Of a stretch of 64,000 bases of DNA, positions 24,494-25,344 are shown one piece after another; positions within the stretch are counted from its first letter, which is position 1; each line of letters starts with the position of its first letter. Source of the DNA: Escherichia phage T4; the sequence record MZ375356.1; one strand, given 5' to 3'. The translations under genes were made by a program, and so were the position numbers. Below the pieces are notes generated by a model, which was not told the DNA's origin, ran no database searches, and was given only the letters and a program-made list of their open reading frames with translations.

Positions 24494-24523
24494 AAAATAA
24501 AAAAGGACTCCCGAAGGAGTCCT
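24494..24523 (-). terminator. hairpin terminator after small basic ORF
   Basis: AGGACTCC-CGAA-GGAGTCCT followed by T-run on minus strand. Confidence 0.7.
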
Positions 24524-24527
24524 CAAC

Positions 24528-24704
24528 TTATGCTTTCTGCTTACCAAAACGAGAAGCATCATCTCGAAGAACCGCACGTGCTCGGCGCATGATCTTCTCA
24601 ACAGTTTGATTGATACGAGAGTTCGACCCACGCTTGTAGCCAGCGCGTTTAGAATCACCAACTTTCTTTTCAACTGCTTTCTTTGCTTTAGCTTGTTTTG
24701 CCAT
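24528..24704 (-). CDS. small highly basic protein (positional 30.9)
   Basis: MAKQAKAKKAVEKKVGDSKRAGYKRG... from ATG; listed ORF 24528..24746 starts at a non-ATG codon. Confidence 0.4.
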   Translation of the reverse strand: MAKQAKAKKAVEKKVGDSKRAGYKRGSNSRINQTVEKIMRRARAVLRDDASRFGKQKA

Positions 24705-24948
24705 TATAAATTCTCTTTTAAATGAAAATGCAGGACTTATTGGCATTGCCTGCGCAAGCCCTCAAGGGGAACATAGGTTTTTGGATATTTAACGACCAGG
24801 ATAACCATAAACCCGTCATCATTCACATTCAAGAGGTACACCGTAAAACTGTCGGGGTCTTAAAACTATAATGATTCGCAAATCATTAATCAGACAGTTC
24901 GACGGCTCCTCGATTTAGCTCACACTAAGGCAGTGAATCTCCAATAAA

Positions 24949-25197: not shown

Positions 25198-25344
25198 TTA
25201 AAAATTCTCGTTAGAGATTAAAACTCGGTAGTCACGTTCTTCTGAATTTCATCTTCTTTCGACAGATCTCTCAGTTGTAGACTACCACATAGAATTGTTC
25301 GGTTAACTTATTATTCCGACACCCAATTCATATTATTATTTATA

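Follow-up and report, generated by a model that had tools for sequence, protein, structure and literature searches.

Introduction

T4 is the reference lytic phage, and its contest with the ToxIN toxin-antitoxin system is a current model of the arms race between phages and bacteria. To our knowledge, this contest has so far been explained by TifA alone, and phage mimicry of an antitoxin RNA has one worked example, that of phage phiTE. ToxI and ToxN pairs are specific. In ToxIN-mediated abortive infection, shut-off of host transcription allows the labile ToxI to decay, and the freed ToxN cuts phage mRNA at GAAAU (PMC10853763). phiTE escapes ToxIN by expressing ToxI-like repeats; these lie in a phage intergenic region with no adjacent ToxN gene, are near but not identical to plasmid toxI, and have been proposed to substitute for the host antitoxin RNA (Blower et al. 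2012, PMC3475682). A single pseudo-ToxI repeat gave no protection in an over-expression assay in phiTE (PMC3475682). Both in natural settings and under laboratory conditions, T4-like phages encounter ToxIN (PMC5449768, PMC9391042); a plasmid-borne toxIN restricts wild-type T4, and against a chromosomal copy the phage relies on TifA (PMC9391042). TifA (T4 gp61.4) is a T4-family inhibitor of ToxN, a small, basic, RNA-binding protein (PMC9391042, PMC10853763).

Two kinds of structured element also bear comparison with the locus described here. The PeSL cassettes of T4-type phages, attributed to Arbiol, Comeau and Krisch in 2010, reportedly consist of an early promoter and a stem-loop, are intergenic and shuffled, and may have circular intermediates. 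The pistol ribozyme is defined by three helices (P1, P2 and P3), by pairing of the P1 loop with the P2-P3 junction in a pseudoknot, by a 2-nt junction at which it is cleaved and by 10 conserved nucleotides (PMC4604425).

The spacer between T4 genes rIII and 30.9 was analysed within a 64-kb window, i.e., the whole stretch of 64,000 nucleotides from record MZ375356.1. An initial annotation had offered three options for it: a structured leader, a small RNA or a remnant of acquired DNA. In the literature covered, with most subscription journals outside its scope, no description was found of a ToxI-like element in T4 or its relatives, of the rIII-30.9 spacer as an RNA locus, or of the modules termed A, M2 and M3 below. 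Antitoxin mimicry is itself known; what appears to be new is a putative orphan ToxI mimic fixed at a conserved locus, within an array of uncharacterised, mobile structured RNAs.

Results

Layout of the rIII-30.9 region

A 751-nt query spanning the spacer matched OZ209023.1 at 100% identity and many T-even phages at 99% identity. The stretch first described as noncoding and lying between rIII and a small basic ORF is a 244-nt spacer at positions 24948-24705, which correspond to 130,541-130,784 of NC_000866; it is bounded by the rIII stop codon (24949) and the ATG of 30.9 (24704). Both neighbours are on the minus strand, where the order is gene 31 (25680-25345), rIII, the spacer, 30.9 and an intrinsic terminator (Table 1). 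The 30.9 product matches phrog_1427, a PHROG of unknown function; it had no relative in Pfam or PDB and no informative PHROG match.

The promoter scan found no sigma-70-like promoter-like site on either strand of 24705-24948, and motif and terminator scans found no late or middle promoter and no terminator inside the spacer. The nearest promoter able to drive reading through it is the late-promoter consensus at 25344 (motif scan), and the first terminator downstream of rIII is that which follows 30.9. rIII is served by early, middle and late promoters (PMC9409239). Since there are promoters upstream of rIII and neither a promoter nor a terminator within the spacer, the operon layout suggests that the spacer should be read as part of the rIII-30.9 message.

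Table 1. Features of the T4 rIII-30.9 region, listed in the direction of minus-strand reading
Feature	Positions	Strand	Basis	Remarks
Late-promoter consensus TATAAATA	25337..25344	-	Motif scan	Just after gene 31, upstream of rIII
rIII coding sequence, 82 aa	24949..25197	-	ORF list and annotation	Upstream neighbour; stop codon abuts M4
M4, single diverged ToxI-like repeat (putative pseudo-ToxI), GGAGAUUCACUGCCUUAGUGUGAGCUAAAUC	24912..24942	-	Profile match	
Module A, three-stem extended hairpin RNA, about 90 nt	24826..24916	-	RNAalifold	
M3, H-type pseudoknot	24773..24823	-	Alignment of 22 distinct sequences	Common to all T4-like spacers examined
M1, small hairpin GUUCCCCUUGAGGGCUUG	24755..24772	-		Part of the GC-rich run
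M5, hairpin GCAGG...CCUGC	24730..24753	-	Sequence comparison	Variable length
Weak hairpin UUUUC-N8-GAGAA over the 30.9 Shine-Dalgarno sequence, then run to ATG	24705..24729	-	MFE fold	
Gene 30.9, 58 aa, very basic	24528..24704	-		Downstream neighbour in all T4-like loci
Intrinsic terminator GAGGACUCC-UUCG-GGAGUCCUU and U run	24503..24524	-	Terminator scan	After 30.9

Composition and coding potential

Positions 24730-24948 have a GC content of 42.9%, compared with 36.0% for the window, which places them at the 94th percentile of 219-nt windows; the stretch is thus relatively GC-rich, as had been stated, although the figure of 45-50% originally given is too high. The inverted repeat AATGATT-TGCG-AATCATT (24870-24887) and the GC-rich run GCCTGCGCAAGCCCTCAAGGGG (24748-24769) are both present. 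A perfect 7-bp stem with a 4-nt loop occurs 26 times in the window and is hence unremarkable by itself. When the T4 spacer was folded as a single sequence, it was only modestly more stable than shuffled sequences (z of -2.6 on the minus strand and -2.4 on the plus strand). Structure beyond chance is indicated because the predicted pairs covary in relatives; the T4 sequence alone is insufficient for this.

Small ORFs occur on both strands of the spacer, including one of 49 aa on the plus strand and one of 34 aa on the minus strand. Both are broken in close relatives by 1-nt indels at three places (GACG-GG/GACGAGG, CCTGGTC/CCT-GTC and CCAAAAACC/CCAAAACC), and the 49-aa ORF has no Pfam match, in keeping with the initial view that no ORF here is convincing. 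Nor is the spacer translated in relatives as a longer conserved protein: the 72-aa upstream extension of 30.9 that some records annotate meets a stop codon in Mosigvirus S143_2. A leader peptide starting at the conserved AUGAUG before M3 was rejected, as the start codons are missing in L031, L032 and L047 and are followed by an immediate stop in L033.

Some database records annotate hypothetical proteins within the spacer. These and the small ORFs would favour reading the region as decaying DNA, the remnant of a lost gene or the source of a small protein (34-49 aa). That explanation is nevertheless most improbable: frames are broken by single-nucleotide indels among close relatives, no Pfam match was found, substitutions are paired across stems and do not fall at third codon positions, and M3 is kept across genera in which the RIII proteins share 64-77% identity. 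The ‘hypothetical proteins’ and a ‘glycogen branching enzyme’ annotated in the spacer are artefacts, which should serve as a warning to annotators.

A shuffled set of conserved modules

About 40 T4-like rIII-30.9 spacers were assembled from IMG/VR loci found via gp30.9, from GenBank records and by a DNA-pattern scan. rIII and 30.9 were the neighbours in every T4-like locus collected, with a gap of 120-420 nt. The comparison with T4-like genomes that had been proposed as a check revealed the same small set of conserved modules (M4, A, M2, X, M3, M1 and M5) in all spacers, in an order that varies by phage group. In T4 the order is M4 - A - M3 - M1 - M5, after which a weak hairpin covers the Shine-Dalgarno sequence of 30.9; many close relatives have an additional M2 (145-154 nt) or X (44 nt) between A and M3, and in some relatives, e.g. 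GEP001, M4 and A are both missing. The modular anatomy, the likeness to ToxI and the strand (minus) had not been noticed in the initial annotation.

M2 is not in T4 and was found in 407 T4-like records; 20 of its 42 predicted pairs are compensatory. The M2 motif CUGAGA...ACCC was considered as a TPP-riboswitch-like element and discarded, the stretch being a covarying hairpin with no Rfam match. The search of RNA families that had been suggested gave nothing for any module: the Rfam 15 covariance models, run at permissive E-values on T4, 3 close relatives, 19 distant loci and 2 sub-regions, matched none of them, module A included, and ARAGORN found no tRNA in the spacer. When the composite spacer was compared with plasmids and E. 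coli genomes by BLAST, matches were obtained through M4 only; A, M3, M1, M5, M2 and X had no detectable counterpart in 72,556 plasmids or 5,426 E. coli genomes.

Module A and the strand of the functional RNA

The inverted repeat at 24870-24887 is the apical hairpin of module A (AAUGAUU-UGCG-AAUCAUU). In an RNAalifold model of 18 distinct sequences from five phage groups, module A has 25 pairs, of which 12 are changed on both sides and almost none are broken. Two of the pairs are G.U in all 18 sequences. Because these invariant G.U pairs would be C.A on the other strand, the minus-strand RNA is the functional molecule, and the strand of the adjoining M4 was assigned on the same basis. Module A occurs once in the 64-kb window (E 8e-30).

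M3 and the comparison with the pistol ribozyme

M3 is present in all spacers, invariably on the 30.9 side. In T4 its helix P1 pairs 24817-24812 with 24800-24794 and is followed by the conserved linker GUUAAAUAUCCAAAAAC. The three pairs of the P1 core are intact in 22 of 22 sequences, with exchanges of the types UA/AU/GC and CG/GC/UA. In the pseudoknot helix pairing reaches 74%, and four of its five pairs have changes in both partners. The covariation score was 0.56, compared with 0.20 for column shuffles (0 of 500 reached 0.56) and at most 0.17 for slid partners. Because the sequences in the alignments of A (18) and M3 (22) are related by descent, the shuffle controls make significance look greater than it is; better evidence of covariation comes from the slid-partner control and from the variety of pair types. 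T4-type M3 sequences pair poorly in the canonical pseudoknot register, and a possible alternative would be pairing of GGUUUAUGG with CCAAAAACC in the A-rich linker.

M3 resembles the pistol ribozyme (RF02679; PMC4604425) in being phage-associated and in combining a hairpin-loop pseudoknot with an A-rich conserved linker, which raises the question of whether M3, with M1, could be a pistol-like self-cleaving ribozyme that separates the rIII and 30.9 messages. Its short hairpin, the loop of which forms a 6-7-bp pseudoknot with a downstream strand, and its conserved GUUAAAUA linker, compared with the env25 pistol sequence, point in this direction, and the position of M1, before or after M3, is like a circular permutation. 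However, the Rfam pistol model gave no match even at E 10 in an 89-nt search, and M3 has P1 and the pseudoknot only, lacking the P2 and P3 helices and the strict 2-nt junction of the published definition (PMC4604425). In addition, M4 and the 145-nt M2 can lie between M1 and M3. The definition and the covariance model together rule out M3 as a pistol ribozyme, and the broader proposal for M3 with M1 is very unlikely.

M1, M5 and the 30.9 ribosome-binding site

The hairpins of M1 and M5, the stems of which likewise show paired changes, together hold the GC-rich run. M1 is found in most spacers, where GUACCCUUYGAGGGCUUG is conserved with CCUC/GAGG variants; it follows M3 in T4 and precedes it in L023, L031, L032 and L035. 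The closing stem of M5, as read from the sequences, covaries across phage groups (GCAGG/CCUGC, GGGAGC/GCUCCC, GAACUGG/CCAGUUC and GUGGAG/CUCCAC). Distant relatives have a stronger hairpin (UUUCUCC-AAAAU-GGAAGA) at the place equivalent to that of the weak hairpin over the T4 Shine-Dalgarno sequence, for which a regulatory role may be inferred. M3, M1, M5 and this hairpin may double as a 5' leader of 30.9.

A more exclusive version of this idea is that the spacer acts mainly in cis, as a 5' leader governing translation or stability of the 30.9 mRNA, with M4 as a passenger. M3, M1, M5 and the Shine-Dalgarno hairpin would then form an operator, perhaps bound by gp30.9, by analogy with the leaders of T4 gp32 and of ribosomal proteins. 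The constant, 30.9-proximal presence of M3 is consistent with such a leader, as are the shape of the Shine-Dalgarno hairpin, which is kept from T4 (UUUUC/GAGAA) to distant genera (UCUCC/GGAAGA), and the small, basic gp30.9 that always adjoins the spacer. The shuffled order of the modules, in which M1 may precede M3 and M2 or M4 may lie between them, would however be odd for one integrated operator. Moreover, A, M4 and X are functional, or are at least retained, in phages without 30.9, e.g. in tRNA clusters, and the homology to ToxI is left unexplained. A predominantly cis-acting role is therefore possible but doubtful; it is not exclusive of a counter-defence role, and both can hold.

M4 and plasmid toxI repeats

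M4 was recognised as ToxI-like in a Klebsiella-phage-like locus, L019, where its sequence is CGGTGATTTGCTACCAAAGTGCAGCTAGAAATAA. A BLAST search of PLSDB with this sequence gave matches of 94% identity in 65 small plasmids, with 3-10 of them in each record; the hosts were E. coli, Salmonella, Klebsiella, Yersinia, Pectobacterium and Serratia. The matches in pNMEC-O75B correspond to 5.6 tandem 36-nt repeats (AGGTGATTTGCTACCTTTAAGTGCAGCTAGAAATTC), and the gene that immediately follows encodes a complete ToxN_toxin domain (Pfam); all of the plasmid loci with M4-like arrays have PF13958 genes. Other phage copies match other arrays: the M4 of Phapecoctavirus phiWec190 is 97% identical to the two-repeat toxI of the IncF plasmid pCV839-15-p3, that of L026 has the same identity (97%) to the toxI of Enterobacter plasmids, which has four repeats, and those of L042 and L048 have their first 27 nt in common with the toxI of Lelliottia and E. 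coli IncX4 plasmids. Phage copies of M4 are thus 94-97% identical to toxI arrays beside ToxN genes on plasmids of E. coli, Enterobacter, Klebsiella and Lelliottia. An nhmmer profile built from natural repeats only found the M4 of the relatives at E-values of 8e-8 to 3e-4. By sequence, the M4 of relatives is a clear member of the ToxI group.

M4 shares with the plasmid ToxI of pNMEC-O75B and pCV839-15-p3 a 31-36-nt unit with the core GGNGA..GCUACC..AAGUGC..A-rich tail and with AAAU at the 3' end; its predicted pseudoknot stems, in which exchanges are compensatory, would also correspond. Unlike the plasmid repeats, the phage M4 is neither tandem nor beside toxN: there is one copy of the ToxI-like unit per phage genome, whereas plasmids have 2 to 10.

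The M4 copy of T4

The T4 M4 lies at the orthologous place, immediately after the rIII stop codon and immediately before module A. With a profile of natural repeats and non-T4-type phage M4 sequences, it was the top match in the 64-kb window (10.9 bits, E 0.034; next match, E 6.2). With the profile of natural repeats only, it scored 5 bits (E 3.3), which is not significant, and BLAST of the T4 M4 against plasmids gave no match. It differs from plasmid ToxI by an A13 to G change, a shorter loop and a 3' tail that is shorter by two bases. However divergent, the T4 copy keeps 12 of the 14 positions that are invariant in natural toxI repeats. Its inner stem (b) shows the compensatory change UGC/GCA to CAC/GUG, as in the natural variant L063 / pCV839, and the loss of the third pair of stem a (GGA/GCC) likewise occurs in the natural variants V2b and V4. 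It also retains GCUA with C27 and U28, each of which is individually essential in ToxI (PMC3475682). The 3' end has AAAU at 24916-24913, a candidate ToxN-type cleavage motif; the 5' flank is just UAAUUU, and GAAAU is found in relatives such as L019. An intermediate is provided by Tequatrovirus EC.W15-3, in which M4 has a T4-like 5' half and a pCV839-like 3' half.

Downstream of the T4 M4 are module A and then 30.9, which has no Pfam ToxN_toxin match. As no toxN is adjacent, the T4 M4 would be an orphan mimic and not a toxin-antitoxin locus; it is regarded as a diverged orphan ToxI repeat that is marginal by sequence. Like pseudo-ToxI of phiTE, it is an orphan ToxI-like sequence in a phage intergenic region, here on the minus strand. 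The two differ in that phiTE has 1.5 repeats that expand in escape mutants, while the T4-like phages have one repeat, set among structured modules at a fixed rIII-30.9 place. The T4-like phages also carry differing toxI variants, and the T4 copy is much more diverged.

A 13-nt identity, TTTATTGGAGATT, between the T4 spacer and the 5' edge of tRNA-Gln in phi92-like phages was considered as a sign of a tRNA or tRNA relic. This was rejected: ARAGORN found none, the stretch is the start of M4, and by our own estimate two such genomes would share about 760 13-mers by chance.

Horizontal spread of the modules

Module A also occurs outside the T4-like phages, at about 80-85% identity and with many compensatory changes. 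In Vequintavirinae (W70, A5-4) tRNA genes begin just downstream of it; in phiWec190 the stretch from tRNA-Gln to tRNA-Pro, inside a tRNA cluster, holds module A along with M4 and X; and in Kuravirus (O18-011, XT32) its neighbours are a small ORF and the gene for the portal or terminase. When 185,579 species genomes of bacteria and archaea were scanned for the module A pattern, a single match was returned, to a mis-binned Kuravirus-like contig; since this sole match is a phage sequence, module A appears to be confined to phages.

Separately, phi92 and 16 other Justusliebigvirus records contain, immediately ahead of tRNA-Gln, 332 bp of inserted, T4-derived DNA (97% identity to T4). The insertion is a circular permutation of the T4 segment, in which M4-A-M3-M1-M5 and the 30.9 start codon join, in frame, the final 27 codons of rIII. 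A 13-bp direct repeat, TTTATTGGAGATT, flanks the insertion; phage BME3 has a single copy of it at the empty site. A second version of the insertion, with the X module, is found in A150. Such short, shuffled, intergenic structured elements resemble the PeSL cassettes, as does the circular permutation in phi92. They differ from PeSL in that the spacer has no promoter-like site and in that its modules are larger and covary as RNA.

The association with tRNA genes could also mean that the modules are processed into stable small RNAs with a housekeeping or host-takeover function, comparable to the RNAs of the T4 tRNA cluster, and that the likeness to ToxI is ancestral or incidental. Module A is beside or between tRNA genes in W70, phiWec190 and phi92-like phages, and its strong conservation and covariation would suit such a function. 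On the other hand, ARAGORN detected nothing tRNA-like and Rfam no family, and the 94-97% identity of M4 to several plasmid toxI variants is hard to call incidental. This possibility is accordingly quite unlikely.

Discussion

Given the observed anatomy, covariation, strand, homology of M4 to plasmid toxI and horizontal spread, the rIII-30.9 spacer is very probably an array of conserved, structured, noncoding RNAs, the first module of which derives from ToxI. The three options of the initial annotation all pointed in the right direction, though broadly. The compensatory changes in A and M3 identify a structured RNA, the 3' part of which sits directly on the 30.9 ribosome-binding site, as a structured leader would; in agreement with acquired DNA, the modules are exchanged horizontally with unrelated phages and one of them derives from plasmid toxI repeats.

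What the array does can be proposed by analogy with phiTE, and there is perhaps an even chance that it is a co-transcribed RNA counter-defence array, based on antitoxin mimicry of the phiTE type, with a 3' part that also serves as the leader of 30.9. The message would start at the promoters ahead of rIII and run through rIII, the spacer and 30.9 to the terminator that follows, and its spacer portion would fold into a row of autonomous small modules. M4 would represent the 36-nt ToxI pseudoknot as an orphan copy; in the type III ToxIN system this pseudoknot is the antitoxin RNA that keeps the ToxN endoribonuclease inactive. When infection stops host transcription and the labile host ToxI decays, the phage look-alike would re-bind ToxN and keep phage mRNA intact. 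M4 may be excised by ToxN itself, at the AAAU after the repeat, with the message trimmed at flanking A-rich sites. Reading from early, middle and late promoters would place it well to re-capture ToxN. A, M3, M1 and M5 are most likely part of the same array, with a role in RNA-based counter-defence or an accessory one, an assignment made because of their association, shuffling and horizontal spread, often into tRNA clusters, which are themselves counter-defence loci; as these modules, like M2 and X, are without a detectable bacterial counterpart, a decoy role for them would be guilt by association.

Some evidence bears directly on the M4 part of this proposal. ToxI-ToxN pair specificity fits the finding that phage M4 alleles match different plasmid toxI alleles. 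Counting against mimicry by M4, the module is a single repeat, and single repeats were inactive in the phiTE assay. Moreover, since wild-type T4 is restricted by plasmid-borne toxIN and depends on TifA against a chromosomal copy, the M4 of T4, or its spacer, is at best ineffective against that ToxN variant. The proposed array may also be compared with TifA, which gp30.9 resembles in appearing to be a small, basic, RNA-binding protein; TifA, however, is a protein encoded at another locus and has demonstrated activity, whereas the spacer would act as a putative RNA.

A further extension is that the spacer is an island of several RNA decoys, in which M4, A, M2, M3 and X would each target a different bacterial defence system, acting as mimic or sponge for its RNA partner or substrate. 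The modules would be swapped as cassettes among unrelated coliphages, their tRNA clusters included, and possibly assembled or stabilised by gp30.9, in analogy with the RNA-dependent TifA. As a whole, this extended scheme is unlikely.

Interest in the antitoxin-mimicry proposal is tempered by the degenerate M4 copy of T4. If it is correct, and T-even phages and their Klebsiella, Enterobacter, Yersinia and Salmonella relatives keep a ToxI-like RNA at one locus, in versions suited to different plasmid toxI alleles and beside other conserved structured RNAs that likewise move among phage families, RNA counter-defence would be widespread, and phage genomes could be used to deduce which ToxI goes with which ToxN. 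Candidates for new anti-defence or regulatory functions would then include three or more RNA families not yet characterised, namely A, M2 and M3.

Spacer modules absent from T4

Two further modules occur in the spacers (the noncoding gap between rIII and 30.9) of T4-like relatives. Module M2 is a multi-stem RNA of about 145 nt in which 20 of the 42 predicted pairs are compensatory, and it includes an invariant 20-nt stretch (GCTAAYGGTGTRCAACAGAT). It was found in 407 T4-like phage records, with a variable place within the spacer; it is not present in the T4 window, and Rfam returned no match for it. Module X, a further cassette not found in T4, is a nested hairpin (AUGCGUCAG-CAAAAGGUUAGCUG-UNUAAGAC) with a compensatory change from CAGC/GCUG to CAGA/UCUG.

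Spacer elements outside T4-like phages

Module A, the three-stem hairpin RNA of the spacer, is also carried by Vequintavirinae, Phapecoctavirus and Kuravirus phages, and is adjoined by tRNA genes in the first two. Its sole 'bacterial' match was a Kuravirus-like contig placed in a Bacillota MAG by binning.

A 332-bp insertion of T4 origin was found in 17 phi92-like (Justusliebigvirus) records, at the 5' edge of tRNA-Gln and with a 13-bp direct repeat on both sides. Its order is circularly permuted relative to the T4 segment, the spacer and 30.9 start codon being joined in frame to the final 27 codons of rIII. This layout suggests that a T4 fragment was integrated after circularisation. The records give the insertion the product name 'lysis inhibition accessory protein'.

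At least six distinct repeat alleles of toxI, the RNA antitoxin of type III ToxIN, were found on enterobacterial plasmids, each in 2 to 10 copies. The paired ToxN endoribonucleases share only 37-51% mutual identity. Separate plasmid alleles are matched by separate phage copies of M4, the ToxI-like repeat of the spacer.

Locations of spacer modules and related features (L-numbers, comparison loci with locus-internal coordinates)
Feature	Record	Position	Phage
Module X	L004	about 727-770	PST
Module X	L038	about 805-850	HX01
Module X	L032	about 1418-1465	
Module X	L061	about 1610-1650	phiWec190
Module M2	L019	1249-1393	
Module M2	L003	735-879	
T4-derived insertion	L002	4001-4348	phiWec187
T4-derived insertion	FR775895.2	about 53.2-54.1 kb	phi92
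Empty insertion site	L008	about 500-515	BME3
Module A	L036	2495-2610	W70
Module A	L061	1466-1665	phiWec190
Module A	L058	1501-1597	O18-011
Module A	L059	1501-1591	XT32
Module A	L065	524-614	
Plasmid toxI array	L063	1203-1275	
Plasmid toxI array	L073	258-402	
Plasmid toxI array	L074	40-404	
Plasmid toxI array	L075	259-402	
Plasmid toxI array	L064	1097-1240	

Genes flanking the spacer

GGAG, the sequence targeted by the endoribonuclease RegB, occurs twice directly downstream of rIII: one copy is where M4 starts (window 24942, minus strand), and the other is part of module A's basal stem (24909, minus strand). The rIII product reportedly inhibits RegB activation (PMC9409239).

In several T4-like GenBank records (hits H11, H72 and H83; L060 1826-2044), the label '1,4-alpha-glucan (glycogen) branching enzyme, GH-13-type' is given to the spacer or to 30.9, or additional hypothetical proteins are called there; such labels look like annotation artefacts.

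The RNA array always lies upstream of 30.9. Gp30.9 (window 24528-24704, minus strand) has 58 residues and no Pfam or PDB relative. It is rich in lysine and arginine, a composition like that of small RNA-binding proteins such as TifA, the T4 inhibitor of ToxN, and gp30.9 might bind the RNAs of the upstream array.
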